A program made the position numbers and the translations under genes. The notes under the pieces were generated by a model. That model was not told where the DNA came from, did not search any database, and saw only the letters and a program-made list of their open reading frames with translations. A DNA stretch of 64,000 nucleotides from Minisyncoccota bacterium (GTDB taxonomy: Bacteria > Patescibacteriota > Minisyncoccia > Phycocordibacterales > UBA9973): contig JAQULK010000001.1 of NCBI GenBank assembly GCA_028718635.1, positions 479,755-543,754 on the forward strand, in the 5' to 3' direction. Below are positions 7,154-48,774 of the stretch, piece after piece. Within the stretch, counting starts at the first letter, position 1, and every line of letters begins with the position of its first letter.

Positions 7154-8302
7154 GTGAAAAAGAATTTACCCCTCTCATATACAGAGCTTTCGAAAAGAAA
7201 TTTAATTCACAATATTAAACAATTTAAAAATTTAGCCAAAAAAGGGACCCAATTCTCCGTTGCTATCAAGGGAAACGCTTATGGTCATGGACAGAATGAA
7301 GTGGCTCAAATTCTTGAGCCGTATGTGGATTATTTCCAGGTTGATAGTTTTGAAGAGTTAAGATTGTTGCGAAAAGTAAGCAAGAAAAAAGTTTTAGTTT
7401 TAGGATATATACAAAAGCTAAATTTATTAGAAGCCGTTAAACTCAGTTGTATTTTGACTGTTTTTTCAATACAGCAAATAAAGCATATATCAGCCATGGC
7501 TGATATATTAAAAATAAAACAAGAAATACATTTACCCGTAGACGCATATCTAGGACGAGAAGGATTTTTATTAGACGAATTGCCAAAAGTTTTTGGAGAA
7601 ATAAAAAAGTGCAAATTTATAAAACTCACTGGCATTTATGCGCATTTTGCAAACATTGAAGATACTTCTAATTTTACTCATGCGCAAAAGCAAATAAAAG
7701 AATATCAAAAAGCTTTAAAATTGGCAGAAAAATTTAATTTTAAAAACCTACAAACACACATATCAGCGACTTCTGGACTTTTAGCTTATGAAACAGGAAA
7801 GGGGATTCATCCAATTATACGCTTAGGTATTGGCGTTTATGGAATGTGGCCTTCTGAAAATTTGAAATTATTATACAAGAATAAAATTAATTTAAAACCA
7901 GTGTTCACTTGGAAAACAAAAATAGCGCAAATTAAAATAATGCCCTCGGGGAGAACTATCGGCTATGGATTGACCTATAAAACAAAAAAAGAAACCAAGA
8001 TTGCCATTATTCCTCAAGGCTACGCAGACGGATTTGATCGAGGTTTTTCCAATAATGGCGTAGTGCTGATCAAGGGTACTCGATGCAAAATTTTAGGCAG
8101 AGTGTCTATGAATATGTTTACAGTAGATGTGAGCCATCTGAAGGGTGTTAGAATGGAAGATGAAGTGGTACTTTTGGGAAAACAGGGTAAAAGTGAAATT
8201 ACTGCAGAAGAAATGGCAAAAAGAATTAATACTATTAATTATGAGATGACCACGCGGATAAGTGCATTGCTACCAAGAATTATTGTGAATTACGAAACAT
8301 AA
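7154..8302 (+). CDS. alr: alanine racemase (GTG start)
   Basis: AIKGNAYGHG PLP-lysine motif; last five codons and stop lie inside 112-bp repeat copy 1. Confidence 0.85.
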   Translation: MKKNLPLSYTELSKRNLIHNIKQFKNLAKKGTQFSVAIKGNAYGHGQNEVAQILEPYVDYFQVDSFEELRLLRKVSKKKVLVLGYIQKLNLLEAVKLSCILTVFSIQQIKHISAMADILKIKQEIHLPVDAYLGREGFLLDELPKVFGEIKKCKFIKLTGIYAHFANIEDTSNFTHAQKQIKEYQKALKLAEKFNFKNLQTHISATSGLLAYETGKGIHPIIRLGIGVYGMWPSENLKLLYKNKINLKPVFTWKTKIAQIKIMPSGRTIGYGLTYKTKKETKIAIIPQGYADGFDRGFSNNGVVLIKGTRCKILGRVSMNMFTVDVSHLKGVRMEDEVVLLGKQGKSEITAEEMAKRINTINYEMTTRISALLPRIIVNYET

Positions 8303-8397
8303 ACTTTTCTCCGGTACGGATTTTTCGAAGCTTGAAAAATCCTGAAGTTCTCGCGCCGCCGCGCTCGAAACCCTTGCGAAAAGTTATGTTTCGTAAT
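8286..8397. repeat. ~112-bp palindromic intergenic repeat, copy 1 (orientation A)
   Basis: gaattacgaaacataaacttttc...ggatttttcgaagcttgaaaaatcc...cgcgccgccgcgctcgaaac...gaaaagttatgtttcgtaattc; six copies in window. Confidence 0.75.
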
Positions 8398-8438
8398 TCA
8401 AGCTTGCTTTTTAAGCTTTTTTATATTAATCTATAAGT

Positions 8439-8597
8439 ATGTCACAAGATAGACTTATAAAACTTGCTTGCGGAACTTGCAAACGCATAAATTACTGGTC
8501 CAGCAAGAACAAAAAACTCGTTACTAAAAAAATCGAGCTTAAAAAATATTGCAAATGGTGCAAAAAGCAGACGAAGCATAAGGAGGTTAAAAAGTAG
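8439..8597 (+). CDS. rpmG: 50S ribosomal protein L33
   Basis: Hand-translated 52 aa MSQDRLIKLACGTCKRINYWSSKNKKLVTKKIELKKYCKWCKKQTKHKEVKK; Cys4 zinc ribbon; too short for ORF track; canonical position upstream of tRNA-Trp. Confidence 0.8.
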   Translation: MSQDRLIKLACGTCKRINYWSSKNKKLVTKKIELKKYCKWCKKQTKHKEVKK

Positions 8598-8667
8598 ATT
8601 TCAGATAGATTTTTTACTTATTTATGTTACACTTTAAACGACCTTACAAAGGATCGTTTTGTTTATT

Positions 8668-8738
8668 GGGTCTATAGTTCAGTGGTAGAATAGCGGTCTC
8701 CAAAACCGTTGACCGAGGTTCGAATCCTCGTGGACCCG
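8668..8738 (+). tRNA. tRNA-Trp (anticodon CCA)
   Basis: Cloverleaf folded by hand: acceptor GGGTCTA/TGGACCC, D arm GTTC..GAAT, anticodon stem GCGGT/ACCGT with loop CTCCAAA, T arm CGAGG TTCGAAT CCTCG; CCA not encoded. Confidence 0.85.
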
Positions 8739-8739
8739 C

Positions 8740-9006: not shown

Positions 9007-10624
9007 CTGTATTTATAGCATCACGGGGATTGCTATTTTCGGAGGATTATTCATAATAATGAACATGGCGCGTTTGTGGAGAAAAACATTTTCGAAAATA
9101 AAAGAAATTTTAGCTACAATATGGCAATACATTTTTGCGCTTGATTATGTCAAATCGCACAAATTAGAAATGTCCGAAAGCGAGCAAAAATTCCGCCTTA
9201 TTGCCGAATCGGTAAACAATGCAATCATTACATTCGATGATGCCGGACTCGTGGTGTATTGGAACAAGAGCGCCAAACGCATTTTCGGCTATGATGAGAG
9301 GGAAGTCCTTGGAAAGTCATTTATTTTAGGTAAGAACGAAAAAGAGAACAACTGGAACGTAGAAAAAAATACCTCTGTCGAGATAATTGGTGTGCGGAAA
9401 AACGGTGAAGAATTTCCCCTGAAAGTTTCATATTCGTCGTGGAAAATCGGCGTGAAGATTTTTCATACAGCAATAGCCCGCGATGTCGGACGTTACCGTG
9501 AATCAGAACAGAAACTTCGGGATTATGCTCAAAAAATGGAGGAAGGCAAAGCATTCGATGATGCGCTTCTTTTGAGTATTGCCGACGGTATTCTGGTAAC
9601 CGATACAATCGGCAGAATTACTTACATCAACAAAGCGCTCGAGGGGCTCTGTGGTATGAAGTCTTCTGAGTTATTACACCATGATCTGGATGAAAGTATC
9701 CCTTTTTTTGATGAGTTTAAGAGAAGAGTGCCACGGGACAAACGGCCTATATATATAGCGCTCGATGCAGAAAAAAGAAAAGAATTCTCGTCAGTCGCAA
9801 AATCTGCTACCTTTTATTTGGCTAATAAAAAAAGTAAACGCCTAATTCCTTTATCTATTAGTTCTGCACCGCTCGTAATAGATGGCAGTGTCAGGGGAGC
9901 GATCGGAGTTTGGCGCGACATCACCAATGAAAAAGAGATAAATAAAGCGAAAGATGAATTTTTATCTTTAGCAGCACATCAATTACGAACCCCGCTCACT
10001 ACTATTTCTTTAACCACAGAAATGCTGATGAAAAATGTGGTAGGGGATATAAATAAGGAGAATAGAAAATATTTGAAAAGCATTTTTAAAGAGGTGAAAA
10101 ATATGACAGAGATGGTTCAAACATTCTTAAATATTTCCCGTATAGAAATGGGTAAATTTGAAATAAAGCCGAAACCGGTAAAATTATTCGAGGAGATAGA
10201 AGAAATAGCCGAAGCAGTATTGCCTCAAATTAATCACAAGAAAGTCCGTTTTAAGAAGAAATATGATAAAAATCTTCCTACTCTAAACTTAGACAGAAGA
10301 GTTTTTAGAATAATTCTTGAAAATCTTCTTTCAAATGCTATTAAATATTCGAGACTAAACGGTCAGATAACTCTACTTGCAAAAGAAACTAGTAATAATG
10401 CTATAATACAAGTTACGGATAATGGTATTGGTATTCCGAAAAAAGATCAAGACAAAATATTTACAAAAATGTTTCGAGCAAAAAATGTTTCTGAAATCAA
10501 AAGCAATGGTTCAGGATTGGGTCTTTATTTGGTAAAAAATCTTGCAGAACAAAATGGTTATAAGGTCTCTGTCAAATCAAAAGAAGGCAAAGGCACTACT
10601 TTTTCAATTTCTTTGCCTCTCTAA
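8972..10624 (+). CDS. PAS-domain sensor histidine kinase (start uncertain)
   Basis: HisKA box EFLSLAAHQLRTPLT, HATPase_c G-boxes DNGIGIP and GSGLGLYLV; two PAS-like segments; N-terminal TM. Confidence 0.8.
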   Translation: MLKNGGLNQSLSCIYSITGIAIFGGLFIIMNMARLWRKTFSKIKEILATIWQYIFALDYVKSHKLEMSESEQKFRLIAESVNNAIITFDDAGLVVYWNKSAKRIFGYDEREVLGKSFILGKNEKENNWNVEKNTSVEIIGVRKNGEEFPLKVSYSSWKIGVKIFHTAIARDVGRYRESEQKLRDYAQKMEEGKAFDDALLLSIADGILVTDTIGRITYINKALEGLCGMKSSELLHHDLDESIPFFDEFKRRVPRDKRPIYIALDAEKRKEFSSVAKSATFYLANKKSKRLIPLSISSAPLVIDGSVRGAIGVWRDITNEKEINKAKDEFLSLAAHQLRTPLTTISLTTEMLMKNVVGDINKENRKYLKSIFKEVKNMTEMVQTFLNISRIEMGKFEIKPKPVKLFEEIEEIAEAVLPQINHKKVRFKKKYDKNLPTLNLDRRVFRIILENLLSNAIKYSRLNGQITLLAKETSNNAIIQVTDNGIGIPKKDQDKIFTKMFRAKNVSEIKSNGSGLGLYLVKNLAEQNGYKVSVKSKEGKGTTFSISLPL

Positions 10625-10628
10625 TTTT

Positions 10629-11306
10629 ATGCAAACAAATCAAAAAAATTATAAATATCTTGGAGTGATCAGTGTTTTCTTTGTTTCTATTTTATTAATT
10701 TCTAATGTTGCTTCGACAAAGATTTTAGATTTTGGTTTGTTTACTTTTGATGGGGGAACTTTGCTTTTTCCTCTTTCTTATATCTTTGGAGATATATTAA
10801 CCGAAGTTTATGGTTATAAAAAAGGGAGAAGCGTTATTTGGCTTGGATTTTTTATGGCTTTATTGATGTCAGTTATTTTTATAATAGTGGGCAAACTTCC
10901 TCCTGCAGTAGGTTGGGATAATCAAGCTGCGTATGATGCCATTTTAGGGTTAACACCGAGAATTGTGATAGCAAGTTTAATAGCCTACCTCTGTGGGGAA
11001 TTTTCTAATTCGTATGTTTTAGCCAAAATGAAAATATGGACTAATGGTAAATGGCTCTGGACTAGAACAATAGGATCAACTCTCATCGGAGAGCTGATAG
11101 ACAGCACTCTTTTTATTTCGATAGCTTTCCTTGGCGTCCTTCCTAATTCTTTGCTTTTTACCTTAATAATTTCCAATTATATATTCAAAACTGCAGTGGA
11201 GGTGCTGTTTACGCCGGCTACTTATAAAGTTGTGAAATTCCTAAAGAGGGAAGAGGGCGAAGATTATTACGACAAAGACACAGATTTTAATCCGTTTAGA
11301 GTTTAA
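10629..11306 (+). CDS. queuosine-precursor transporter family (YhhQ/DUF165) membrane protein
   Basis: Start set at ATG 10629 (MQTNQ); multi-TM protein with YhhQ-like conserved stretches (GGTLLFPLSYIFGDILTEVYGY). Confidence 0.6.
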   Translation: MQTNQKNYKYLGVISVFFVSILLISNVASTKILDFGLFTFDGGTLLFPLSYIFGDILTEVYGYKKGRSVIWLGFFMALLMSVIFIIVGKLPPAVGWDNQAAYDAILGLTPRIVIASLIAYLCGEFSNSYVLAKMKIWTNGKWLWTRTIGSTLIGELIDSTLFISIAFLGVLPNSLLFTLIISNYIFKTAVEVLFTPATYKVVKFLKREEGEDYYDKDTDFNPFRV

Positions 11307-11313: not shown

Positions 11314-11425
11314 GAATTACGAAACATAAACTTTTCTTAGGTACGGATTTTTCGAAGCTTGAAAAATCCTGAAGTTCTCGCGCCGTCGCGCTCGAAACCC
11401 CTGCGAAAAGTTATGTTTCGTAATT
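11314..11425. repeat. ~112-bp palindromic repeat, copy 2 (orientation A)
   Basis: Near-identical to copy 1 (cgcgccgTcgcgc variant); its 3' end supplies the stop codon of 11424-11765 gene. Confidence 0.75.
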
Positions 11426-11765
11426 ATTCTCTTTTCTCAAATACTTGCAAGACCCAGCCTATGATTGCAAGGACAATACCGAATAAAAACGCAGACCAGA
11501 AACTGTCCACTGTAAACCCTGGGACGATGTAGCTTGCCAGCATGACCAACAATCCATTTATAACTAAAACAAAAAGACCGAGGGTGAAGATTGTGATAGG
11601 CAAAGTTAAAAATATAAGTATCGGACGCAAGATAAGATTAATGGCTCCAAGAACGACAGCTAGAACAAAGGCTGCCAATAATCCGCTGACATGCACTCCG
11701 GGCAAGATATAAGCTGTTATTAATATTGCTATCGTCGAAACGATAAAATGTATAAATGTTTTCAT
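11424..11765 (-). CDS. DUF360 / phage-holin-4_2 family 4-TM membrane protein
   Basis: ILPGVHVSGLLAAFVLAVVLGAINLILRPIL... pattern typical of PF04020 family. Confidence 0.55.
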   Translation of the reverse strand: MKTFIHFIVSTIAILITAYILPGVHVSGLLAAFVLAVVLGAINLILRPILIFLTLPITIFTLGLFVLVINGLLVMLASYIVPGFTVDSFWSAFLFGIVLAIIGWVLQVFEKRE

Positions 11766-12083: not shown

Positions 12084-12087
12084 GTTT

Positions 12088-13102: not shown

Positions 13103-13564
13103 TTACCTACACGAGGTAGAAAGCGTATATCCGGCCGCTTGCGCCTCTTCCCCTGTTGTAAAGTAAACTCTGTTTTCTTGTTTGATAGTTTTCCCAGCAG
13201 AACAACCTAGAGAATAATATTTACTTCCCTTGCTTGAAGCAAAGAAATTTTTTCCTGAATTATTTGTATTATTTTCAGCTGGTGCCCTATTTTCGCTATT
13301 TATGAACGCAGATAGAACATTAGCCGTTTTGCCCGTAATTGGGTTCGTATATTCGATTTTTAGGCCTTTCTGGCTGTTTTTCTTTGATAGTCTACCTAGC
13401 TCAAATGACCCTATGCCCACTAGAATTACAATAACAACTACTAAAATATCCTTCCCCTTTTCGCTTTCTATGAATTGCTTGACCCCGTTAAAGACAGAGG
13501 GTCGCTGCGAGCCCTCGCGGTCTTTAACGGGGTTGATTTTTTCTTGGGAATTGTGTAGACTCAT
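13103..13564 (-). CDS. membrane-anchored protein with C-terminal Ada-like metal-binding domain
   Basis: Single TM (ILVVVIVILVGIG) then C-terminus ...KYYSLGCSAGKTIKQENRVYFTTGEEAQAAGYTLSTSCR resembling Ada_Zn_binding (YFxxxxEAxAAGYRPC). Start set at MSLHN to avoid overlap with rpmA. Confidence 0.4.
   Translation of the reverse strand: MSLHNSQEKINPVKDREGSQRPSVFNGVKQFIESEKGKDILVVVIVILVGIGSFELGRLSKKNSQKGLKIEYTNPITGKTANVLSAFINSENRAPAENNTNNSGKNFFASSKGSKYYSLGCSAGKTIKQENRVYFTTGEEAQAAGYTLSTSCR
13493..13532. mobile_element. 40-bp MITE-like palindrome (CCCCGTTAAAGAC ... GTCTTTAACGGGG) with flanking TTGA direct repeat, inside CDS 13103-13564
   Basis: 13-bp perfect TIRs related to CCYGTTAGARAY core of elements at 1737 and 3557; GC-rich loop; reading frame stays open through it. 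Confidence 0.35.
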
Positions 13565-24832: not shown

Positions 24833-25351
24833 TTATTTTTTTAGGTATTTTTTATATCCAACTTTTAAAAGTTTCTCACCTTTTATTTTAACTGCAATCT
24901 TCATTTTATCTTTATAAGCAATCAATTTCTTTTCTAAATTTTTATCATTTATTGCAAGCATGGCAATCGCCAGCAACCCTGCATTTTTTGCAGAGTTAAT
25001 GCCGACAGTCGCTACAGGTATTCCCGAAGGCATATTTATCGTAGAAAGAATTGAATCAAGGCCGTATAAATTTTTAGTTTTAATAGGCACGCCGATGACA
25101 GGCAGAGTCGTGAGAGAGGCGATCACTCCTGCCAAATGCGCTGCTCCGCCTGCGCCTGCAATGATGATTTTTAATCCGCGAGCTTTTGCGCTCACTGTAT
25201 ATTTATGAACCAAATCAGGGCTTCGGTGCGCAGAAGCCACTGTCATCTCAAAAGGCACATTAAATTCTCCGAGTATTTTCCCTGCTTCTGCCATTACCTC
25301 CAAATCTGAATCCGAACCCATAACTATGCCGACAATAGGTTTTTTACTCAT
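24833..25351 (-). CDS. purE: N5-CAIR mutase / PurE
   Basis: VGIVMGSDSD and AGGAAHLAGV motifs. Confidence 0.9.
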   Translation of the reverse strand: MSKKPIVGIVMGSDSDLEVMAEAGKILGEFNVPFEMTVASAHRSPDLVHKYTVSAKARGLKIIIAGAGGAAHLAGVIASLTTLPVIGVPIKTKNLYGLDSILSTINMPSGIPVATVGINSAKNAGLLAIAMLAINDKNLEKKLIAYKDKMKIAVKIKGEKLLKVGYKKYLKK

Positions 25352-25375: not shown

Positions 25376-25488
25376 AAATTACGAAATATAACTTTTCGAA
25401 GGGGTTTCGAGGCTGACGAGCCGAGAACTTCAGGAATTTTTAAGCTTCAAAAATTCCGTACCGAAGAAAAGTTTATATTTCGTAATTT
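25376..25488. repeat. ~112-bp palindromic repeat, copy 3 (orientation B, subtype ggctgacgagcc)
   Basis: Reverse-complement orientation of copy 1; between purE start and purH stop. Confidence 0.75.
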
Positions 25489-25502: not shown

Positions 25503-27020
25503 TTAATGTTTAAAATGTCGAAAGCCAGTCGTTACCATCGCCATATTATATTTATTCGCCATATCAATCGATGCTTGATCATTTTTCGAGCCTCCAGGAT
25601 GAATTACCGCGCTTACACCCTCTTCTCCTGCTAACTCTACGCAATCAGGAAATGGAAAGAATGCTTCAGAGGACATCACTGCGCCTTTGAGAGAAAAATT
25701 AAATTTTTTAGCTTTATCGACAGCTTGCTTTAAGGCATCAATGCGAGAAGTTTGCCCGCAACCCATCGCTAAAAGCGTCCCATCTTTTACTAAAGCAATA
25801 GAATTAGATTTTAAATGTTTTGTAATTACTGCAGCTACAAGCAAGTCTTTTTTTTCTTGATCCGTCGGTTCACGTTTTGTTGTTACTTTTAAATCTTCTT
25901 CAGTTTCAATATGCGTGTCTCGATCTTGAGAAAGAATTCCGGTAAAACAAGTTCGGTTTTGTTTTTGTGCAAGGATTGGTTTCTGCCATTTCAAAATTCT
26001 GCAATCTTTTTTCTCCATTAATATATCGAGCGCTTCTTTAGAAAAGTCTGGCGCGATGATTACTTCTACGAAAAGTTTTTGTTCTTTGATAAGCTTAGTA
26101 ATGTCTTCTTCTATGGTTCTGTTGGATGCCAAAATTCCACCAAAAGCTGAAAGCGGATCTGCGTTATAAGCTGCTTGATATGCTTCAAATAAATGCCCTT
26201 CTTCTCTAACTGCTAGACCGCAAGTATTCATATGTTTTACGATAGCAAAAGCAGGATCTTTAAAATCATAAACAGCCATAATGGCAGCCTCTGTATCTAT
26301 AAGATTGTTATAGGAAAGTTCTTTTCCGTGAAGTTGGATAAAACTTTTTTCTAGATTCCCGATAAATTCAGCTTTCTGGTGCGGATTTTCTCCATAACGC
26401 AATTTTTTTCCTTGAAAATATGCACGAATAGCATTGTCGTAAGCGCTCGTCACCTCAAAAGCATCACCTGCAAATTTTTTACGTTCTTCTAAAGTTGTTT
26501 CTGTGCCTTTTTTAAGTATCTCTGCTAATTCCTGATACTGATTTTTAGAAGGAATAACTACAACATCATTAAAGTTCTTCGCCGCTGCACGAATTAGAGA
26601 TATTCCGCCGATATCTATTTTTTCTATTATTTCTTCCTCGCCCGTCGAAGCATTGGCGAAGGAGGGCTCGTTTTCATATCTTTCTAAAGTTTCTTCGAAT
26701 GGATACAGATCCACGATTACTAAATCAATATTCTCTATGTTGTGTTCTTTCTTTTCTTTCTGATCGTCAACGTTATCTCGGCGATTCAAAATTCCGCCGA
26801 AAATTTGTGGTTGTAGTGTTTTTACTCTACCACCAAATAAAGCAGGATAATTGGTGATTTCTTCCACTTCAGTCACTGGCACGCCAAGCTTGCGAATAAA
26901 TTCTGCAGTCCCGCCGGTCGAAATAATTTTTACATTATGCTTGGCCAGAAGCTTAACAATTTCTTCTAGTCCATCTTTATTAAAAACTGAAATAAGCGCC
27001 GTTGTAATTTTTTTATTCAT
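25503..27020 (-). CDS. purH: bifunctional AICAR transformylase / IMP cyclohydrolase
   Basis: MGS-like N-domain (ALISVFNKDGL...STGGTA) and AICARFT domain. Confidence 0.9.
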   Translation of the reverse strand: MNKKITTALISVFNKDGLEEIVKLLAKHNVKIISTGGTAEFIRKLGVPVTEVEEITNYPALFGGRVKTLQPQIFGGILNRRDNVDDQKEKKEHNIENIDLVIVDLYPFEETLERYENEPSFANASTGEEEIIEKIDIGGISLIRAAAKNFNDVVVIPSKNQYQELAEILKKGTETTLEERKKFAGDAFEVTSAYDNAIRAYFQGKKLRYGENPHQKAEFIGNLEKSFIQLHGKELSYNNLIDTEAAIMAVYDFKDPAFAIVKHMNTCGLAVREEGHLFEAYQAAYNADPLSAFGGILASNRTIEEDITKLIKEQKLFVEVIIAPDFSKEALDILMEKKDCRILKWQKPILAQKQNRTCFTGILSQDRDTHIETEEDLKVTTKREPTDQEKKDLLVAAVITKHLKSNSIALVKDGTLLAMGCGQTSRIDALKQAVDKAKKFNFSLKGAVMSSEAFFPFPDCVELAGEEGVSAVIHPGGSKNDQASIDMANKYNMAMVTTGFRHFKH

Positions 27021-27343: not shown

Positions 27344-27360
27344 ATATTTTTATATAATTA

Positions 27361-27650: not shown

Positions 27651-27688
27651 ATTTTCTCTATTTTTTCTACTTTAGTTAAGTAAAGTAA

Positions 27689-34864: not shown

Positions 34865-35311
34865 ATGAAATACTTTTTTGGTGGTGGTTCAGAAAAACTG
34901 TCTGAAAGGAAGATAGGAGAAGATGTGGGAGAATTCATTGATTTTATGTTACTCATTCAACATGCTGGCGAAGATATTTTGTTGACCAGTAATCTGTACC
35001 TAATTGAAACAAATCTTCAACTTTTAATTTCATATTTTTGCCACGTTGAACCTATCAATGTTGCTGATATTAATGTTTTGAAAATAATCAACGAAAGGTA
35101 TCAACACATTATCAAAAGAAATGGTTATAAAAAGGCGCAAAAAGAAGAAGAACTGGCAAATCTTCGAAGGGAAATCAGTGAAATCCTTCAAAAAAATTCT
35201 GTTACAATAATTGACATGTGGGATTTTGGATGTAATCCCTTACACTACCATTCTCTCAGAGATTTCCCTCACAACAAAGGAAATGCTTACCTTGCCTATA
35301 TAGGTAAGTAA
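34865..35311 (+). CDS. hypothetical protein (own promoter, strong SD)
   Basis: 148-aa ORF, no motif recognised; unlike neighbouring genes has canonical -35/-10 and GGAGG RBS. Confidence 0.45.
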   Translation: MKYFFGGGSEKLSERKIGEDVGEFIDFMLLIQHAGEDILLTSNLYLIETNLQLLISYFCHVEPINVADINVLKIINERYQHIIKRNGYKKAQKEEELANLRREISEILQKNSVTIIDMWDFGCNPLHYHSLRDFPHNKGNAYLAYIGK

Positions 35312-35321
35312 TCGCTATCAA

Positions 35322-35370
35322 GCCGTTCTAGAGCTGCGCCGAAAAGCCGCCTGAGGAACGGCTTTTCATT
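35322..35370. terminator. hairpin terminator between convergent 34865-35311 gene and purD
   Basis: gccgttc...aaagccgcctgaggaacggctttt + T-rich tail. Confidence 0.4.
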
Positions 35371-35416
35371 TGGGAAAATAATTTTCTTAGATTATCATAT
35401 ATGATATATTAAGAAA

Positions 35417-36736
35417 TTAAATTTTTTCTGTTTTTAAAGCAGATTGGCCGATGTCTTTGCGGTATTGCATGCCCCTAAATGAAATTTTTTCGATGGCTTT
35501 ATAAGCTTTTGCAAGGGCTTCTTCAAGAGAATTGCCTATAGCTGAAACTCCAAGCACTCGCCCGCCACTCGTAACAAGTTTGCCATTTTCCATTTTAGAG
35601 CCCGCATGAAAGACGACGATGTCGGGTTGCATTTCCGCTTCATCAATACCGGTGATTATTTTCCCCTTTTCATAATTTTCCGGATATCCGCCGGAAGCGA
35701 GCGCAATATTACAAGCGGACACATTTTTCCATTTTATTTCTTGTTCATTTAATTTTTTATCAACACAGGCATTCAAAATTGCTAATAAGTCCGTGTCGAG
35801 CAGTCTCATGTAAACTTGGCATTCTGGATCACCAAAACGGGTATTGAATTCAATAATTTTAGGACCGTCCTTAGTCAGCATTAGGCTCGGATATAAAATT
35901 CCTTCAAAAGGAACTCCATCATCCATCATGCCTTTCAGTGTGGGAGCTATCACTTCCTTTTCTATCCTTTCCATCATCTCCCCGCTCACAAACGGAAGCG
36001 GTCCTATTACCCCCATTCCGCCAGTATTGGGTCCTTTGTCCCCTTCAAAAATTCTTTTGTGATCCTGCGAGCTTGGGAAGATCTTATAATTACTGCCGTC
36101 TGATAAAGCATGAATTGAAATTTCATGGCCGATTAAAAATTCTTCTATCACTACTTCATTGCCGGAATCCCCGAATATTTTCTTTACCATGATTTCCTCA
36201 AGTGCAGTATTTGCCTCTTCAATATTTTGAGCGATGATTACACCCTTACCGAAAGCTAGACCGTCTGCCTTGATAACGATCGGAAATGACTGCCTGCTAA
36301 TGTAATCTTTTGCTTCTTCAAATTTATTGAATATTTTAAATTTGGCTGTCGGTAGATTATGCTTATACATGAAATCTTTTGAAAAAGTTTTAGACCATTC
36401 CAAATGCGCCGCAGCCTTGGTCGGCCCCCAGATCCGCAAATTTGCCTTTCTAAATTCTTCCACTAGGTCAGTAGCCAATACCCCATCCGAAGCAGCGAGG
36501 GTTAAGTCAATATTTTCTTTTTTAGCGAACTCTATCAACTTTGGAATATCCACAGTCTTAATGTCTACATTTATTCCCAATTTCAAAGTACCGGCATTTC
36601 CAGGGGCAAAGAAAATCTGTCCGCACTGCGGTGATTGGGCGATCTTCCATCCCAAGGCATGTTCTCGTCCGCCACCTGCACCGATAATTAAAATTTTTTG
36701 CCTCGCCCCAAGGGCTACGGCCGAGGGTTTTTGCAT
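35417..36736 (-). CDS. purD: phosphoribosylamine--glycine ligase
   Basis: ILIIGAGGREHALGWK N-terminus, ATP-grasp. Confidence 0.9.
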   Translation of the reverse strand: MQKPSAVALGARQKILIIGAGGGREHALGWKIAQSPQCGQIFFAPGNAGTLKLGINVDIKTVDIPKLIEFAKKENIDLTLAASDGVLATDLVEEFRKANLRIWGPTKAAAHLEWSKTFSKDFMYKHNLPTAKFKIFNKFEEAKDYISRQSFPIVIKADGLAFGKGVIIAQNIEEANTALEEIMVKKIFGDSGNEVVIEEFLIGHEISIHALSDGSNYKIFPSSQDHKRIFEGDKGPNTGGMGVIGPLPFVSGEMMERIEKEVIAPTLKGMMDDGVPFEGILYPSLMLTKDGPKIIEFNTRFGDPECQVYMRLLDTDLLAILNACVDKKLNEQEIKWKNVSACNIALASGGYPENYEKGKIITGIDEAEMQPDIVVFHAGSKMENGKLVTSGGRVLGVSAIGNSLEEALAKAYKAIEKISFRGMQYRKDIGQSALKTEKI

Positions 36737-36744
36737 ATTATTTT

Positions 36745-36856
36745 GAATTATGAAACATAACTTTTCGAAGGGGTTTCGAGCGCGACGGCGCGAGAACTTC
36801 AGGATTTTTCAAGTTTCGAAAAATCCGTACCGAAGAAAAGTTTATGTTTTGTAATT
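36745..36856. repeat. ~112-bp palindromic repeat, copy 4 (orientation B)
   Basis: Between purD start and purN stop; cgcgacggcgcg core. Confidence 0.75.
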
Positions 36857-36861
36857 AATGA

Positions 36862-37491
36862 TTATTGTGTTAATTCTTGTAATACTTCGACATACAATGC
36901 ATTTTCTTTGATTTTTAATCGCCCATACAAGGACTCAACATTGTCACCTTCCTTGATTTTTTCAAAAGTTCTCCCTAAAACTGGACCAAAATCAAAATTC
37001 AAGGTTAAAAAATGAACCGATGATCCAGCGAAAGTGGCCTTTTTGTCCAAGAAATTAGCAATCGCTTTATCAGTCATCATGCCTTTGTTCCAAAGAGCTT
37101 CTGTTCCGTCTGGATTTTTAAAACTTTCATTAACTGTATCTGGAATTAATCCAGGGTGTAGATTTAAGATCTTATTTGGAAACGCAAGGATTACTTCATC
37201 TAAAATAATTTGTTTCCAGCCAGCCAAACAAATATACGTTGGATCAATTTTTCTTAGAAGCGCGAGCAAATTTTCTTTAGATTCGCAAATCTCAATTTTT
37301 AAATTATTTTTTCGAGCATGCTCTAGGCCTTGAGCCTTTTCAGTATCTGAAACTACTGCACAAATTTCAGCCTTAATTATCCCAGAATTGACTCCATCAA
37401 TTATCGCCTTGAGGTTTGTGCCAGTACCGGCATTAGAAATTAATACGACTAATTTTATTTTATCTGATGTTTTATTTGGTTGAGACATCAT
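36862..37491 (-). CDS. purN: phosphoribosylglycinamide formyltransferase
   Basis: KLVVLISNAGTGTNL N-terminus, formyl-transferase fold. Confidence 0.85.
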   Translation of the reverse strand: MMSQPNKTSDKIKLVVLISNAGTGTNLKAIIDGVNSGIIKAEICAVVSDTEKAQGLEHARKNNLKIEICESKENLLALLRKIDPTYICLAGWKQIILDEVILAFPNKILNLHPGLIPDTVNESFKNPDGTEALWNKGMMTDKAIANFLDKKATFAGSSVHFLTLNFDFGPVLGRTFEKIKEGDNVESLYGRLKIKENALYVEVLQELTQ

Positions 37492-38872
37492 ATCTTACAT
37501 CTTTTTTGCGTTCTTTTAAATCAATAGGGTAAATACCAGTAAAGCATGAAGTGGATAATTTATCTTTTGGTAGTCCAATAGCTTTTATTAATCCATCGAG
37601 CGAGAGATAGTGTAGCGACGTAGCTCCCATAAATTTACGAACTTCTTCTACGCTCTTATAAGCTGCTATTAATTCATCTTGGTAGGGAGTATCCATGCCA
37701 TAAAAATCCGGATAGCGGATGGCGGGAGAAGAAATCAAAAGATGCACTTCTTTGGCTCCCGCTTTAAATAAAGTTTTGACTATTTTTTTACAGGTGTGTC
37801 CTCTGACGATAGAATCATCGATGACTATTATTTTTTTTCCTTTCAAGACCTGCGGAAGCGGTATGAGCTTGAGCGCTACGCTGTTTCGCCTGGATTGCTG
37901 ATCAGGTTCGATGAAAGTTCTATGAACATAGCGATTTTTTACTAAAGCCATCTCCATTGGAATACCAGAAGCTTGGCTGAAGCCCATAGCCACCGGTGTT
38001 GCCGTGTCTGGCACAGGTACGACAAGATCAACTTTTTTCTTAAATTCATGGGCTAAAGCTTTTCCGAAGTTTTCTCTAACCTGGTAAACTAATTTACCTG
38101 AGAGTACGCTATCGGGTCGGGCAAAATAAACATATTCAAATATATCGTGTTTTGGATTGGATGGCGCCAATTGGATGCTCTTTAGTCCTTTTTCATTAAT
38201 GACAACCATTTCTCCAGGTTTCACTTCTCTAAAAAATGTCGCCCCGATAGTTTGAAGCGCGCATGATTCTGAAGCAATAACATAACTCCGGCCAAGTTTT
38301 CCTATAGAGAGCGGACGCATTCCATAAGCATCGCGCAGAGCAACTAGAGTATCCTTGGTCATCATCACTAAAGAAAAAGCCCCAGTAAATAACGGGAAGG
38401 CTTTTTTTACAGACTCTGAAATTGAATTCCCCTCTTTAATATAAAAATCGATGGCATCCGCCATCAGCTCTGAATCATTGCGATCTTTTTTTAATGCTTT
38501 TTTTGAAGAAAGAAAATTCTCTAATGCTTTTGTGCTTGGGAGATTTCCATTATGCGCTAGCGCAAAAGATTTTTCTTTGTTTACGACGGGCTGAGCATGA
38601 TTGAGCGCGCCTCCCTTAGAGGTAGAATATCTATTGTGGCCGATAGCAATATTCCCTGTTAGTAATTTTTTTATTATTTTTTCCGTGTAAATTTGGGACA
38701 CGAGTCCTGCACCTTTGTGGGTTTTAAATTTTACTCCATTATTGGTGGTAATTCCGGAAGCTTCTTGACCCCTGTGTTGTAAGGCAAATAAAGCAAAAAA
38801 TGCCAGTCTGGAAATAGGCAAATCCTTACCGTATATCCCTACGATTCCGCACTTTTCTTTTAGTTCACTCAT
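37472..38872 (-). CDS. purF: amidophosphoribosyltransferase
   Basis: MCGIVGIYG Ntn-Cys start (after MSELKEK), PRTase domain DDSIVRG. Confidence 0.9.
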   Translation of the reverse strand: MSELKEKCGIVGIYGKDLPISRLAFFALFALQHRGQEASGITTNNGVKFKTHKGAGLVSQIYTEKIIKKLLTGNIAIGHNRYSTSKGGALNHAQPVVNKEKSFALAHNGNLPSTKALENFLSSKKALKKDRNDSELMADAIDFYIKEGNSISESVKKAFPLFTGAFSLVMMTKDTLVALRDAYGMRPLSIGKLGRSYVIASESCALQTIGATFFREVKPGEMVVINEKGLKSIQLAPSNPKHDIFEYVYFARPDSVLSGKLVYQVRENFGKALAHEFKKKVDLVVPVPDTATPVAMGFSQASGIPMEMALVKNRYVHRTFIEPDQQSRRNSVALKLIPLPQVLKGKKIIVIDDSIVRGHTCKKIVKTLFKAGAKEVHLLISSPAIRYPDFYGMDTPYQDELIAAYKSVEEVRKFMGATSLHYLSLDGLIKAIGLPKDKLSTSCFTGIYPIDLKERKKDVRYDVSTK

Positions 38873-38883
38873 AATTTTGTTTT

Positions 38884-38992
38884 AGTTATTTTACATCAAC
38901 TTTTTCCGGTACGGATTTTTTGAAGCTTAAAAAATCCTGAAGTTCTCGCGCCGTCGCGCTCGAAACCCCTCCAAAAGTTATGTAAAATAACT
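38884..38992. repeat. ~110-bp palindromic repeat, copy 5 (orientation A, degenerate ends agttattttacat...atgtaaaataact)
   Basis: Conserved core ccggtacggattttttgaagcttaaaaaatcctgaagttctcgcgccgtcgcgctcgaaacccct; 3' end encodes last 3 codons + stop of purQ. Confidence 0.7.
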
Positions 38993-39778
38993 AACTGCAT
39001 TTTTAAAAATTTGTAATCCTGCCCCTTCCCTCGGCCATAGCCCTACGGGCGAGGCCTTGGAAACCTTTTTATTAAATTGCCACATTGGATTTTGGTGCGC
39101 AAACATTGCCCTCTCCGGATGTGGCATCATGCCTAGTACTCTGCCATTATATGCTAAAACTCCCGCAATGTCATGTTCCGATCCATTTGGGTTTTTTTCT
39201 AGGTTTTGAAACTCGCAAATTTCTCCATTTGCATATACAAAAGCAATTTCCCCACTTTTTTTCATTTTTAGGTATTCTTTTTGAGAGATTTTATAACGTC
39301 CTTCACCATGAGCTATCGGTAATGATATCTTTCTGATATTTTTTAACCAAGGACTACTTGCCCCGCCATGGCGTGGGGTTCCTTTAGCCTCTAGGTCCAC
39401 CCACCTATCCAAATATTTTCCATTTTTATTATAGGTGAGCGCGCCGGGTAAGATTCCTAAATTTGTCATTATCTGAAACCCATTACAAATGCCTATAGCA
39501 AGAGTATTGCCTGATAAAAATTCTATTAACTCCTTCGCTAAATGATTTTTAAATTTATTTGCGTAAGCTTTCCCGCTTCCTGTGTCGTCTCCATAAGAGA
39601 ATCCCCCAGGGAAAACCAAAATTTGATAACCAGAGAGCATTTTCGGCTTTTTTATCAGATCATTAATATGCACAATATCCACGGCTCCGCCCACTCTCTC
39701 AAAAGCGAATTTTGTTTCTTCTTCGCAATTCAATCCGTATCCAGACATTATTATTATTTTTGGTTTTTTGTTTTTCAT
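38978..39778 (-). CDS. purQ: FGAM synthase I, glutamine amidotransferase subunit
   Basis: KIIIMSGYGLNCEEET..., catalytic GICNGFQ, HGEGR. Confidence 0.9.
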   Translation of the reverse strand: MKNKKPKIIIMSGYGLNCEEETKFAFERVGGAVDIVHINDLIKKPKMLSGYQILVFPGGFSYGDDTGSGKAYANKFKNHLAKELIEFLSGNTLAIGICNGFQIMTNLGILPGALTYNKNGKYLDRWVDLEAKGTPRHGGASSPWLKNIRKISLPIAHGEGRYKISQKEYLKMKKSGEIAFVYANGEICEFQNLEKNPNGSEHDIAGVLAYNGRVLGMMPHPERAMFAHQNPMWQFNKKVSKASPVGLWPREGAGLQIFKNAVSYFT

Positions 39779-39789
39779 GATTTTAAATT

Positions 39790-39850
39790 CTCCTCACCCC
39801 TTTCTTTCCCCTCTCCATTATTGATGTAATGGAGAGGGGCTGGGGAGAGG
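39790..39850. repeat. palindromic GGAGAGGGG-family element, copy b
   Basis: cccctctccattattgatgtaatggagagggg + ctggggagagg; between purQ start and paralog-3 stop. Confidence 0.5.
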
Positions 39851-41617
39851 TCAATATACTTCACTTTGATAGCATCGTTCACAATAAACTATCTCTTTCT
39901 TTGCTGAAATATGTCCGGTCTTAAATTCTTCTTTGCATGGTTCGTCTCCATGAAAGTGTTTTATGGTATTTTTGTATATATTAGTTTTATCACTTGAACC
40001 AGCACACATACAAGATCTTTTTTCTAATTTTAATTTCAACCTATCTTCTATTCTTCTTTCAAATCTACATTCATGACACAAGGTCGGAAGCGGAAGATTT
40101 TCTTTTTTATAAAACAAAAACTCATTTTCTAGAATTTTATATGGATTTTTACATTTTTCACATTCTATAACTTCTTTTAGGATTTCATCATCAATTTCAG
40201 TTATTGATTCTGTAAGTTCTGATGCTTTTTTTGTTATTTTATATTCTCCCCTAGGTACATCTATCCATAAATACCCTTTATTTTTTGCCTCAGCCTCAGT
40301 AAGTGGAAAATGTTGTATAGCGACAGTATTATTGTAGCCAAGTGGAGAAAGTTCTATAGGAAAAAATTCTCCGTATTTATATACAAGACCTTGTGAATCC
40401 ACATAGGGCATATCTTCCATGTGTTTTTTTATTTGAGGAATAAGTTTTTCATATTCTTCTTTAGAATATTGCTTATTTAAAATACAATATTGTTTCTTTT
40501 TTAACCCAACACAACCAAAACAATCAGACGAACTAAAAAGATGATGACAGTATTCATTATTTCTTGATGAAGGCCAACAACTACGTGAAAATTTATTATT
40601 ATAGGAATTTTCACCACATTCTAAAGTTTCATAATTTAATTCAGTATGCTCTCCCCAGTTGCAAGAATCATAGTTATCCTTATTTCCTGGTACTTGCATA
40701 TACTGACAATAACGCATATTTTCACTTTCTCTTATTAAATAGCTATCATTTACATTTTTACAATTCGTCACATGAGAACCACTTGAATTTAAATTTTTAA
40801 GACCGTGTTGATATTTTGTCGGCTGAGTTAGCCAAAATAAACGTGCTTTTTTTCTTGCCTCTAAAATTCCAGAAGTAGAATTCAAATTCATTTTCTTTAT
40901 TTCTTTTTCATATTCTTCTTTTGTATATTTTTTATTAAAAATACAATAAGATAATTTACGCAAATTTGCACAACCAAAACAATCATTACATCCTAAGCAA
41001 TTACGACAAAAATAAAGATTATATGATTCTGCGCACATTATAGAAAAATAGCACTGATAACAATTTTCCAACCAAAAACATTCATAACAACGTTCGCAAT
41101 TTTTAATATGAGAATTATCAACACAATTCTTGCAGGAATCTACGCCATTTCCATACATACAATCCTCAGAATAATTTGAATTCACAATCAAATAACTGTT
41201 TTTTATATAAGACGCATTAAAAACATACGGACTATTATTAATAAAAGTATTATTAAAATTATATACAGGTACAACCTTACTTAATTCTTCTATTTGTTGA
41301 AAAAATGGCTTAGTAAAGTCAATATCTAAAGCATGCTCCATTGGATCCCAATTATCTCCAAACCATTCTTCTCGAGTCATTATTTTTCTTCCACTTTCTG
41401 CAGGGTAAGTAGAGAACATATTTTCACCCGTTAAAAAATTTTTTACTTTGAATAATTTTCTTTCATTTCTCCAAGCTAACCGTCTTTGTGCGCGACACAT
41501 AGGACAAAAAGTTGGAGGTGGAACCTTCATTTTTTCATAGAAATTAAAATCCTCCGGTTCTATTGGGAAATTTTCCTTGCAGTTTTGACATATTCTATTT
41601 TCTGTAATATACGCCAT
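39851..41617 (-). CDS. cysteine-rich zinc-ribbon-flanked protein, paralog 3 of 3
   Basis: 588 aa; RICQNCKENF...FCPMCRAQRRLAWRNER N-ribbon; LCHECRFERRIEDR...CERCYQSEVY C-ribbon; C-x2-C clusters and YCILNKQYSKEEYEKL repeat. Confidence 0.6.
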   Translation of the reverse strand: MAYITENRICQNCKENFPIEPEDFNFYEKMKVPPPTFCPMCRAQRRLAWRNERKLFKVKNFLTGENMFSTYPAESGRKIMTREEWFGDNWDPMEHALDIDFTKPFFQQIEELSKVVPVYNFNNTFINNSPYVFNASYIKNSYLIVNSNYSEDCMYGNGVDSCKNCVDNSHIKNCERCYECFWLENCYQCYFSIMCAESYNLYFCRNCLGCNDCFGCANLRKLSYCIFNKKYTKEEYEKEIKKMNLNSTSGILEARKKARLFWLTQPTKYQHGLKNLNSSGSHVTNCKNVNDSYLIRESENMRYCQYMQVPGNKDNYDSCNWGEHTELNYETLECGENSYNNKFSRSCWPSSRNNEYCHHLFSSSDCFGCVGLKKKQYCILNKQYSKEEYEKLIPQIKKHMEDMPYVDSQGLVYKYGEFFPIELSPLGYNNTVAIQHFPLTEAEAKNKGYLWIDVPRGEYKITKKASELTESITEIDDEILKEVIECEKCKNPYKILENEFLFYKKENLPLPTLCHECRFERRIEDRLKLKLEKRSCMCAGSSDKTNIYKNTIKHFHGDEPCKEEFKTGHISAKKEIVYCERCYQSEVY

Positions 41618-46954: not shown

Positions 46955-47045
46955 TAGTTGGAATATCGAAGTATTATCACAAGCCTGCTTTGCGACACTA
47001 TGTGTTTGCGAAGTGGGCTTGTTTATTTTATGCTATATTATATTT

Positions 47046-47618
47046 ATGAAATTTATTTTTGATTTTGATGATGTGTTGTTTTACAATAGCGATAAGCTAA
47101 AAAAACGTATATATTTTTGTTTAGATAAAGCGGGTATTCCTTATGGTACCGCCGAAGCTTATTATAAAAAAGTTCGAGGGGGAGAATTTTCTTTAAAGGA
47201 TTTTTTATCTGAACTAGTAGATCTTGAAAATAAAAAGGATATCGAAGCAGAAGAATTACATGAAGAAATAATGAGTGAATGCCCTAATTTTATCAATACT
47301 GAATTAGTGAATCTTGTACAAAAATTCGGAAAAGAAAATTGTTATCTAGTAACTTATGGTGGATATGAACATAATAAAAATAAAGTGGAAAGAAGTGGAC
47401 TCGCTCCTTTATTTTCTGAAATTCATATAGTGTCAAAAAGTAAAAAGGAAGCTGTAGAGAAAATATGCGCCAAACATAAAGATGAAAAAGTAATATTTAT
47501 AGACGATAAAATAAAACATTTTGAAAATTTAGATTTTAAAAAATATCCCAATTTACAAACGATACTTTTTGATGACAATGGTTTTGAGAAATTTCTTTCT
47601 ATTTTACCCCCTCTGTAA
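47046..47618 (+). CDS. HAD-superfamily hydrolase (putative phosphatase)
   Basis: Motif I FIFDFDDVLF at N-terminus, motif IV-like FIDDKIKHF near C-terminus; start at ATG 47046. Confidence 0.5.
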   Translation: MKFIFDFDDVLFYNSDKLKKRIYFCLDKAGIPYGTAEAYYKKVRGGEFSLKDFLSELVDLENKKDIEAEELHEEIMSECPNFINTELVNLVQKFGKENCYLVTYGGYEHNKNKVERSGLAPLFSEIHIVSKSKKEAVEKICAKHKDEKVIFIDDKIKHFENLDFKKYPNLQTILFDDNGFEKFLSILPPL

Positions 47619-48774
47619 GCGCAGGTTCTGTGTCTGTTTGAATTATATTAAATCGCAAAACCCCGATGGTCTGGCCTTGCTTCGTCTTTACATTTACTCG
47701 CCATTTACCCTCGGCTAAATTGTAGCGCATAGAATACGTGCGGAAACCGCCATCTCGCCCGCCTACTACAGGTAAATTTATCGTACTTCCAGTTACCCAT
47801 TTCTTCTGTATTTCATCATAATATTGCCATTCGTGAACAATAGTAAGGTTTAGATTTTTAGGAGAAAAAATAGCACTAAAAGCATAGATGGGTTCCCCGG
47901 AAACCTGATTGAAATTTTGATATAAATTGAAATAACCTCTCCAACCATAATCCTCAAAAGTCACATCATAATTCCCTTCTGAATTTTTTTGTATCGAATG
48001 ATACACTCCGGCATCTTTTAAGGATAAAGGAATCGGGGGAATCAGATTCGTAAAATACAAAAAATTGATTAGAATAGAAATTCCTAAAATTAGGAATAAT
48101 AAATCACGAAACATAAACTTTTCTTCGGTACGGATTTTTTGAAGCTTAAAAAATCCTGAAGTTCTCGGCTCGTCAGCCTCGAAACCCCTTCGAAAAGTTA
48201 TGTTTCGTGATTTAAGGTTAATAAAATAAAATAAAATTAAAAGGAATACGGTAATAAAAAGTAAACTAAGAAATCCGGAAAGTAAAAATACCCAAGCACC
48301 TATTCTATGTAAAATCACCGGCACGATAAAAATGGCAAAGGAATAGATCGAAAGAAAAAATAAGCTTATTTGGAAACTAAGGCGAATATAATGACGTTTA
48401 AGTGATTCATTCGCTATAAAAGCAAGAGCAAGAAGGACAATAAAAGGCCAAGTTACAAATATATCTGCGCTTCTGAAATAAAACACCAAGTAGGTAGACA
48501 AAATTCCTCCAAAGAAAAATTGCAGTATGTTCACATACCAAAAATGCGCTTTTTGAGGATTTTTCTCAGCCCCTCTTTCGTTTTCTTGGAGGTGAATAAG
48601 GGTGATAAAGATGCCCACAATGAGCAAATGTCCTAAAACCCATAAATTCTCCCATAATGTGTCTACCCTATGAAGCGTGAGCGCATCAAAAACGAAACCT
48701 CCAACTAGGGATAAAGATGAGATAGGTCGTTCAAATCTTCCATAGAAATTGCGAATTGGATCTAGAAAAAACAT
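47599..48774 (-). CDS. polytopic membrane protein with C-terminal extracytoplasmic domain; carries in-frame copy of 112-bp repeat
   Basis: 5-6 TM helices N-terminally, then residues NLKSRNITFRRGFEADEPRTSGFFKLQKIRTEEKFMFRDLLF encoded by repeat copy 6, then a further TM and soluble domain. Confidence 0.5.
   Translation of the reverse strand: MFFLDPIRNFYGRFERPISSLSLVGGFVFDALTLHRVDTLWENLWVLGHLLIVGIFITLIHLQENERGAEKNPQKAHFWYVNILQFFFGGILSTYLVFYFRSADIFVTWPFIVLLALAFIANESLKRHYIRLSFQISLFFLSIYSFAIFIVPVILHRIGAWVFLLSGFLSLLFITVFLLILFYFINLKSRNITFRRGFEADEPRTSGFFKLQKIRTEEKFMFRDLLFLILGISILINFLYFTNLIPPIPLSLKDAGVYHSIQKNSEGNYDVTFEDYGWRGYFNLYQNFNQVSGEPIYAFSAIFSPKNLNLTIVHEWQYYDEIQKKWVTGSTINLPVVGGRDGGFRTYSMRYNLAEGKWRVNVKTKQGQTIGVLRFNIIQTDTEPALTEGVK
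48101..48213. repeat. ~112-bp palindromic repeat, copy 6 (orientation A, subtype ggctcgtcagcc), inside CDS 47599-48774 in frame
   Basis: aaatcacgaaacataaacttttcttcggtacggattttttgaagcttaaaaaatcctgaagttctcggctcgtcagcctcgaaaccccttcgaaaagttatgtttcgtgattt. Confidence 0.75.

Follow-up and report, generated by a model that had tools for sequence, protein, structure and literature searches.

What kind of element is a palindromic repeat of about 110 bp that recurs between the genes, and once within a gene, of a bacterium of the Candidate Phyla Radiation (CPR, or Patescibacteria)? The question is raised by a 64,000-nt stretch of DNA from a Minisyncoccota bacterium (assembly GCA_028718635.1, contig JAQULK010000001.1, positions 479,755 to 543,754 of the forward strand), hereafter called the window. 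CPR genomes are very small, densely packed with genes and usually considered to contain little mobile DNA, and to our knowledge their non-coding sequence has hardly been studied. A sequence-only reading of the window had proposed a dispersed palindromic family behaving like the Rickettsia palindromic elements (RPE) or the ERIC repeats of enterobacteria, with one copy translated in frame inside a membrane-protein gene. We consider it probable that the six repeats of the window belong as copies to a non-autonomous MITE family (MITE, for miniature inverted-repeat transposable element), widespread in CPR genomes of the Parcubacteria/Paceibacteria type.

Six copies of one structured element

A covariance model built from 57 family members and run unfiltered over the whole window recovered all six places that had been proposed, in both orientations, as exactly six full-length copies of ~113 bp (c1 to c6, Table 1; 115-128 bits, E <= 1e-29). 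The remaining matches score 19.6 bits or less and are either these six copies read on the opposite strand or plain hairpins of no relation to them. The core pattern, 36 nt long, matched the window 5 times at up to 3 mismatches, against 0 in 100 shuffles, and in an oriented alignment the mean column identity of the six copies is 83%, flanks included.

Each copy is predicted to fold into an outer stem and two inner hairpins (-32 to -44 kcal/mol, z -5.4 to -7.1): a 22-bp outer stem, P1, encloses an AU-rich hairpin, P2 (GGAUUUUUUGAAGCUUAAAAAAUCC), and a GC-rich one, P3 (UUC-UC-GGCU-CGUC-AGCC-UC-GAA). This agrees with the outer stem, the inner hairpin and the two subtypes of GC-rich core that had been described from the letters alone. 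The subtypes, CGCGCCG(C/T)CGCGC in c1, c2, c4 and c5 and GGCTCGTCAGCC in c3 and c6, differ by paired changes. Compensated differences among the six copies are found in all three helices, namely CGCG/CGCG versus GGCU/AGCC in P3, C-G versus U-A in P2 and, in the divergent outer stem of c5 (AGTTATTTTACAT / ATGTAAAATAACT), CGAAA/UUUCG versus UUUUA/UAAAA.

A family across CPR genomes

An exact scan for the core pattern, with one genome per species, gave at least 120 matching blocks; 109 of the 120 listed come from 53 CPR assemblies, the other 11 being chance matches that the covariance model does not recognise. The labels of these assemblies include Nomurabacteria, Paceibacterota, Yanofskybacteria, Adlerbacteria, Yonathbacteria, Minisyncoccia and Parcubacteria, as well as some metagenome-assembled genomes labelled Saccharibacteria. 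With the covariance model, 115 copies were found in the window and 99 loci. The unit measures 110-140 bp and consists of an outer stem of 22-25 bp around a three-way junction of P2 and P3, the latter with the consensus CUCGG-NN-CGYC-NN-CC. Over the 115 copies, 91% of the cells are paired, both-sided changes occur in 41 of the 43 pairs, and the covariation score is 0.519, compared with 0.128 after shuffling and at most 0.125 with slid partners; RNAalifold independently gives the same structure. At almost every position the outer stem uses all four Watson-Crick pairs. Diverged subfamilies keep this architecture, some of them being GC-rich and others carrying additional hairpins within P2 or between it and P3.

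Some copies carry short GC-rich hairpins in the P2 loop, e.g. CTTGCCCCGCC...GGCGGGGTG and CCCTGCCTGCCGGCAGGCAGG (Table 1), which may represent a further mobile hairpin of very small size or else a facultative arm of the structure. At one site found in two metagenomic loci (L145 and L146; Ga0209343_10024349 and Ga0155365_110), a copy of family A, as we call the main form, has its left half replaced by a second, nested palindromic element, whose ends are GAATTATGAACATAATCGTGAAAA....

Several known kinds of element were considered and set aside. At the gathering thresholds of Rfam 15 only two tRNAs in the window match, and c1 searched at E <= 10 returns chance matches only (best E 1.3, a plant miRNA hairpin). 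A hammerhead ribozyme was threaded by hand through the junction GGUAC / CUGAAGU / CGAAAC and fails at A9 and at the 1.1-2.1 pair. Integron attC sites (R''/R' motifs), parS and a sarcin-ricin-like motif were rejected by inspection only. A tRNA-like nature was discarded as well: ARAGORN finds two genuine tRNAs only, none of them at the copies. As for intrinsic terminators, a consensus scan of positions 35000-40000 of the window flags neither c4 nor c5, and the outer stem is followed by no consistent T-run. Phage or plasmid origin was likewise rejected, there being no BLAST match in phage or plasmid collections and no core in the viral contigs scanned.

Ends, target-site duplications and empty sites

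The best-defined subfamilies have terminal inverted repeats (TIRs) of the form 5'-YNNT-GAATTACGAAAC... / ...GTTTCGTAATTC-ANNR-3'. These ends are present in five of the six window copies and in a series of copies of the assembly MFTH01 (L007, L012, L035, L038, L076, L092, L115 and L117), and they also bound different interiors, those of families B and C. Duplication-flanked copies (see below) occur in MFTH01, JAGXAA01 and JBAZSF01. Many other copies have different, locus-specific arms. When metagenomes were scanned with the right end, 56 stretches were obtained, in which complete copies measure ~133 nt and combine the same ends with varied interiors. One locus (L166, Ga0209541_10371906) contains a 62-nt mini-element made of the terminal repeats and the stem, with a short loop and no three-way-junction core; ends and core are therefore separable.

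In metagenomes and related genomes, at least 12 copies stand between perfect, AT-rich target-site duplications of 7 bp (TAAGTAA, ATAAAAA, TGTAAAA, TATACAA, TCAAAAC, AATTTAT, TAACATT, TACTGTA, TAAACAT, TATAATA, TAATAAA and ATATTTT). Copy number is specific to the lineage: the window has six copies in 64 kb, and four relatives with 85-90% identity in PurE have none in 71.5 kb, again by unfiltered covariance-model search. The sites of c3, c4, c5 and c6 are all empty in relatives, i.e. they are polymorphic for presence or absence. Without the repeat, purN and purD overlap or lie 1 nt apart (L182, L183), purQ and purF are separated by a 2-nt gap (L183), and the site of c3 is a spacer of 47-57 nt (L184, L185). 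The purQ/purF site is filled in two other genomes (L125 and L075), in the orientation opposite to c5. At a further site, between the DAO and DUF2914 genes, one relative (L125) has a family-A copy and another (L121) a family-B copy; the ends of the two align and their interiors differ, which could be due to reinsertion at a hot spot or to replacement of the interior by recombination between copies. The idea that the core inserts into pre-existing terminator hairpins was abandoned, as no empty hairpin with matching arms was seen at the empty sites.

Insertion contexts were scored on 108 copies, with open reading frames (ORFs) that in the loci are crude longest-ORF calls. Copies lie between tandem genes in 54 cases, between convergent genes in 29, between divergent genes in 10 and inside an ORF in 5; the other 10 are at the edge of a locus and not classifiable. 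The median placement is 1 nt past the upstream stop codon and 12 nt ahead of the next start, and many upstream genes terminate within the repeat. Intergenic copies have stop codons in nearly every frame, and about 3-5% of all copies are intragenic.

The family thus combines small size, non-coding sequence and multiple copies with TIRs, target-site duplications and presence/absence polymorphism. These features, along with the empty sites and the in-frame insertions described below, bear out the earlier proposal of a dispersed palindromic family with RPE- or ERIC-like behaviour. Copies insert into AT-rich DNA with duplication of 7 bp of the target, and almost all of them land where a gene ends or where neighbouring genes are tightly packed, often supplying the final codons and the stop of the upstream gene. 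The rare intragenic copies survive where the stop-free frame falls in register and the site is a tolerant loop, as in DUF2914, LepA and UvrB. As a mechanism we propose that movement would be effected in trans by a transposase of the DDE type, to which the staggered-cut duplication points, the enzyme itself not being found in the 185 loci.

Several observations weigh against this interpretation. First, most copies have no GAATTACGAAAC ends, yet possess a perfect stem and an intact core, which is not predicted by a purely selfish MITE. Second, within the window only c4 has a duplication, and an imperfect one (ACAATAA / AAAATAA, 6/7), and over 105 copies the enrichment is modest (9 with n >= 7 versus ~4 expected). 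Third, a related transposase-encoding insertion sequence (IS) with the same ends, the usual companion of a MITE family, was not found in the 185 loci scanned, and the viral contigs held neither an autonomous element nor the family core. When 969 ORFs from all loci were clustered, no transposase-like family was enriched beside the copies, their recurrent neighbours being housekeeping genes. Single GAATTACGAAAC-like matches, considered as possible ends of an autonomous IS, were put down to chance. Finally, the ~65-nt junction core is nearly invariant, but the invariance of the junction strands is partly built in because the loci were retrieved with the core pattern, and the ORF calls in the loci are crude.

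Another type of enzyme may be envisaged. The repeats could be hairpins of the REP/REPIN kind, moved as single-stranded DNA by a RAYT/IS200-type Y1 (HUH) transposase for which they are the recognition structures. Conservation of the stem as structure rather than sequence, with mismatches symmetric between the strands, would fit such a mechanism, as would the CGTC/CGCC in the P3 loop, CGTC being a known REP tag (PMC3733652). Moreover, one relative (L185) has, exactly at purN/purD where the window has c4, an IS200-like Y1_Tnp gene (221 aa, Pfam E 3e-12) flanked by TGTTCAAC-N7-GTTGAACA hairpins. These hairpins are, however, unrelated to the family and absent from the window and the 184 other loci; L185 has no family copy, and no Y1_Tnp gene stands beside any family copy, as judged by ORF clustering only. 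Perfect 7-bp duplications and TIRs are not products of Y1/HUH transposition. We therefore find this explanation very improbable and retain transposition as a MITE.

In-frame copies

The gene that holds c6 encodes a polytopic membrane protein ending in a DUF2914 domain; translated in the only stop-free frame of that strand, the copy gives KSRNITFRRGFEADEPRTSGFFKLQKIRTEEKFMFRD, ~38 codons. The claim that this copy is read through finds support in the ORF, which is continuous over its 391 codons. With few exceptions the 120 best homologs of the protein have 361-368 residues, the insert-free orthologs 362. In the aligned orthologs an 11-residue basic loop, KDKFKESKRLI, stands between two hydrophobic segments where the window protein has 40 residues; these orthologs lack the segment. 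Nor does the ORF consist of two genes separated by the element: both of its halves align to full-length orthologs and the DUF2914 domain is intact, so that neither of the two refutations named with the sequence-only reading holds. Compared with a syntenic insert-free genome (L125), ~26 bp have given way to the 113 bp of c6, which lengthens the gene by 87 bp (29 codons).

Another relative, L121, whose protein is 83% identical, carries this insert too, at an identical place and with the unusual end variant AAATCACG in common, which indicates one old insertion. Between the window and this relative the element is 94.7% identical (0.895 at third codon positions), against 77.8% (0.575) for the rest of the gene, and of the five differences in the element one is compensated across a stem, A>G being matched by T>C. 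An AlphaFold model of the protein has a pLDDT of 52, too low to place the insert.

It might be objected that c6 is not translated at all, either because it is cut out of the mRNA in the manner of an intron or because the ORF is a pseudogene or two genes. The very stable predicted fold in the mRNA (-43.6 kcal/mol) and the low AlphaFold confidence for the region could be taken that way. However, 113 nt is not a multiple of 3 and the copy replaced ~26 nt, so that its excision would shift the frame of the conserved DUF2914 domain; with only one frame open, and that frame in register, translation is the sole route to a full protein. The insert and its frame have been kept in the relative, another insert, in uvrB, uses the same frame, and no ribozyme or intron model of Rfam matches. 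An untranslated c6 is thus hardly credible, and judging from the intact frame the copy appears to be translated through.

Two of the five inside-ORF cases are genuine, independent in-frame insertions, both in one Adlerbacteria-labelled genome of 57-59% GC. EF4/LepA (L101) has a 38-residue insert relative to 5imq, and UvrB (L053) a clean insert of 39 residues, or 117 nt, that falls at residue 429 of 9gy7 and is in the frame of c6 (GFExDxxRTSG). To go by their uninterrupted frames, these inserts are probably translated as well. In-frame insertion had been called the hallmark of the Rickettsia elements; it does occur here, but it is not confined to Rickettsia, since fusions of this kind are also known for ERIC, BOX, QMITE1 and the Anabaena MITEs (PMC10969869).

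Conservation after insertion

Some sites are filled in three or four species (mraZ/rsmH, rpsT/grx, ftsZ/trxB and purQ/purF). At shared intergenic sites the cores are mostly 88-98% identical, whereas the flanking proteins are 57-90% identical; the arms are related but diverged, and more alike than arms elsewhere (0.70 versus 0.63, p 3e-4). At purQ/purF the genomes differ in the arm over the last purQ codons, and each variant has an opposite arm that fits it. Copies without TIRs are mostly sense to the flanking genes (36 sense versus 9 antisense, p 7e-5), whereas those with TIRs, the duplication-flanked ones included, are not (15 versus 12), these counts not being phylogenetically independent. 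Together, the conservation at shared sites, the orientation bias and the contrast in rate between c6 and its gene indicate that a constraint at the nucleotide level acts on the hairpin and the junction core after insertion.

The mismatches of the outer stem do not favour G.U (70) over A.C (91), and selection on a strand-specific RNA was rejected on that account. In 106 of 121 copies it is the antisense strand that has the slightly better fold, which is uninformative on the strand. The core is equally intact in antisense copies and orientation can differ at one and the same site, both of which argue against a strand-specific RNA role of the core. Within the mechanism proposed above, the hairpin in the transcript may serve as a structure at mRNA 3' ends or between cistrons; alternatively, the junction may be bound by a conserved factor.

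In an alternative view, the elements are first of all a signal of the host, in the form of structured RNA or DNA, used for intercistronic or 3'-end processing, stabilisation or termination or as binding site of a conserved CPR factor, mobility being secondary and the MITE-like copies a derived form. The identity of the cores and the likeness of the arms at shared sites, the conservation of c6 well beyond that of its gene, third codon positions included, and the sense bias of the TIR-less copies all speak for it, as do the optional extra hairpins, set within the P2 loop or between the hairpins P2 and P3, of a sort found in many structured RNAs. Against it, the relatives that have zero copies in 71.5 kb, and genes that abut where the window has a repeat, show that the element is dispensable at those sites. 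Both orientations occur at one site with the antisense core intact, one site has different interiors in two relatives, and there is neither an excess of G.U over A.C nor an Rfam match even at E <= 10, nor a likeness to canonical intrinsic terminators. On balance we judge a primary host function unlikely.

The MITE reading leaves room for a less exclusive role of the core. It is possible, if doubtful, that the junction core is a functional module which some conserved CPR factor binds, be it as RNA or as DNA; such a module may act as operon punctuation for transcript processing, in 3'-end protection or in termination. Equally tentative is the idea that transposition spread the module through minimal genomes and selection then retained it. 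A functional module would explain the slow evolution of the core relative to neighbouring proteins, its preservation within a coding region and the 4:1 sense bias of the older copies.

Genes and other features around the copies

The genes of the window were identified by Pfam (Table 1). Their order is alr-[c1]; Vut_1-[c2]-DUF360, the two genes being convergent; guaA ... purH-[c3]-purE-purM-purC-purB; and purL-(588-aa ORF)-purQ-[c5]-purF-purN-[c4]-purD. The sequence-only reading was right in that alr, purQ and the DUF360 gene end in the repeat, their stops lying inside c1, c5 and c2, respectively. It had placed four copies in the pur operon; there are three only, c3, c4 and c5.

Table 1. Coordinates of the repeat copies, of neighbouring genes and of other features mentioned in the text (positions in the window unless a locus is given)
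Feature	Position	Strand	Context or remark	Model score (bits)	Predicted fold
c1	8287-8399	+	directly 3' of alr, same direction; P3 subtype CGCGCCGCCGCGC	120.4	-40.1 kcal/mol, z -5.8
c2	11314-11426	+	between convergent Vut_1 and DUF360/PF04020 genes	125	-43.8 kcal/mol, z -7.1
c3	25376-25488	-	between purH and purE, sense to both	126.3	
c4	36745-36857	-	between purN and purD, sense to both	115.1	
c5	38882-38994	+	between purQ and purF, antisense to both	118.4	
c6	48101-48213	+	inside DUF2914 gene, antisense to gene	127.6	-43.6 kcal/mol
alr	7154-8302		last four codons and TAA from c1 (N-Y-E-T-stop)		
Vut_1	10542-11306	+			
DUF360/PF04020 gene	11424-11765	-	TAA stop formed by last bases of c2		
purE	24833-25351	-			
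purH	25503-27020	-			
purD	35417-36736	-			
purN	36862-37491	-			
purF	37472-38872	-			
purQ	38978-39778	-	ends 16-17 nt within c5; last codons Y F T stop		
DUF2914 gene	47599-48774	-	host gene of c6; polytopic membrane protein, 391 aa; C-terminal DUF2914 (PF11141, E 2e-14)		
Purine gene set	21479-44646		purB, purC, purM, purE, purH, purD, purN, purF, purQ, purL, guaA		
Segment between guaA and purH	27065-30114		~3 kb		
588-aa ORF	39851-41617		between purL and purQ; no Pfam match		
Counterpart of 588-aa ORF	L125 17122-18882		586 aa, same position		
tRNA-Trp	8668-8739		~270 nt downstream of c1		
tRNA-Gln	61066-61138		adjoins one of the unique long hairpins		
Unique hairpin	1674-1723		gene 3' end		
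Unique hairpin	17618-17653		gene 3' end		
Unique hairpin	44973-45009		gene 3' end		
Unique hairpin	61231-61270		gene 3' end		
GC-rich long hairpin	13482-13533		inside predicted ORFs		
GC-rich long hairpin	58439-58484				
Family-A copy	L125 9868-9976		DAO/DUF2914 site		
Family-B copy	L121 5866-5996		DAO/DUF2914 site		
Y1_Tnp gene	L185 1067-1806		purN/purD site		
Copy with P2-loop hairpin insert	L043 976-1110				
Copy with P2-loop hairpin insert	L055 3092-3225				
Copy with P2-loop hairpin insert	L035 6257-6389				
Copy with P2-loop hairpin insert	L112 1428-1568				

Many CPR lineages are thought to be without nucleotide biosynthesis. The window contains a near-complete gene set for de novo purine synthesis, with a purL product of 1005 aa, in a genome whose main contig is only ~0.67 Mb long; no purine riboswitch was detected in the window with Rfam. 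The segment between guaA and purH holds two small ORFs, a 589-aa ORF without Pfam match and a Fic/DOC-domain gene, and since purH directly follows guaA in four relatives (L182-L185), it looks like an inserted island.

Unique, perfect hairpins of 15-19 bp (z ~-7 to -8) are found at the 3' ends of some genes of the window. They are probably the ordinary terminators of this genome, and they resemble the outer stem of the repeat without its core. Two further long hairpins are GC-rich (62-65%) in a genome of 35% GC.

Comparison with known systems

In one lineage the family can attain a density of about one copy per 10 kb, and in a close relative it is absent; it wedges between translationally coupled genes, rewrites gene ends and adds segments of 29-39 residues to EF4/LepA, UvrB and a membrane protein. 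Such lineage-specific spread and rewriting of gene ends make it of practical use for tracing recent genome dynamics in uncultured lineages, and C-termini and stop codons donated by the repeat are a source of annotation artefacts. The conserved folded core is a concrete candidate for a CPR-specific nucleic-acid signal, and the 7-bp duplications and defined ends provide a handle for finding the transposase responsible.

ERIC/IRU of enterobacteria and the Correia/NEMIS elements of Neisseria are imperfect palindromes of ~100-155 bp with long TIRs, located at transcribed intergenic sites, often within operons, and forming long RNA hairpins, for which orientation-dependent effects on mRNA have been reported. 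The CPR family shares the imperfect palindrome, the long TIRs and the frequent location within operons. It has no sequence similarity to these elements and duplicates 7 bp instead of TA, and its interior is a conserved three-way junction where theirs holds, e.g., an IHF site. The bcr1 repeats of the Bacillus cereus group are small and dispersed in a low-GC genome, with compensatory changes that keep the predicted structure and with signs of mobility. All of this is common to bcr1 and the CPR family, which differ in sequence, size, ends and host; moreover, bcr1 is confined to one species group, whereas the CPR family spans lineages labelled as different candidate phyla. REP/REPIN sequences, like the CPR repeats, form intergenic hairpins that sit at gene 3' ends, recur many times in a genome and have stems that evolve by compensatory changes. 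They have no TIRs or target-site duplications, consist of units of 20-40 nt or doublets of them and are linked to a Y1 transposase, whereas the CPR family has TIRs and duplications and no linked Y1 gene was found.

We know of no report of cross-species conservation of the interior for the QMITE or cyanobacterial MITE families. QMITE1/2 of Coxiella burnetii, Nezha and the Anabaena MITEs resemble the CPR family in their TIRs, their preference for intergenic sites and some in-frame ORF fusions (PMC10969869, PMC5896051), and differ from it in sequence, in the length of the duplication and in host. RPE are palindromic repeats of ~100-150 bp dispersed in a small genome, with in-frame copies in genes that are translated as extra loop segments (PMC10969869), features which recur here. 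They are intragenic at unusually high frequency, in contrast to the 3-5% of the CPR family, and the host lineage is another one. The CPR family, which has clear TIRs, 7-bp duplications and a deeply conserved three-way-junction core, is regarded here as RPE-like in behaviour only.

The sequence-only reading knew of no such elements in a genome of this type, and we too found no description of such a family in CPR/Patescibacteria in the searchable literature or in the 2024 review of MITEs, whose in-frame fusions include nothing from CPR (PMC10969869). Small palindromic, operon-sited and sometimes in-frame MITE-like repeats are thus already known, and what appears to be new is this family in CPR, which stands out from the systems compared by its well-defined 7-bp duplication and its exceptionally conserved three-way-junction interior.

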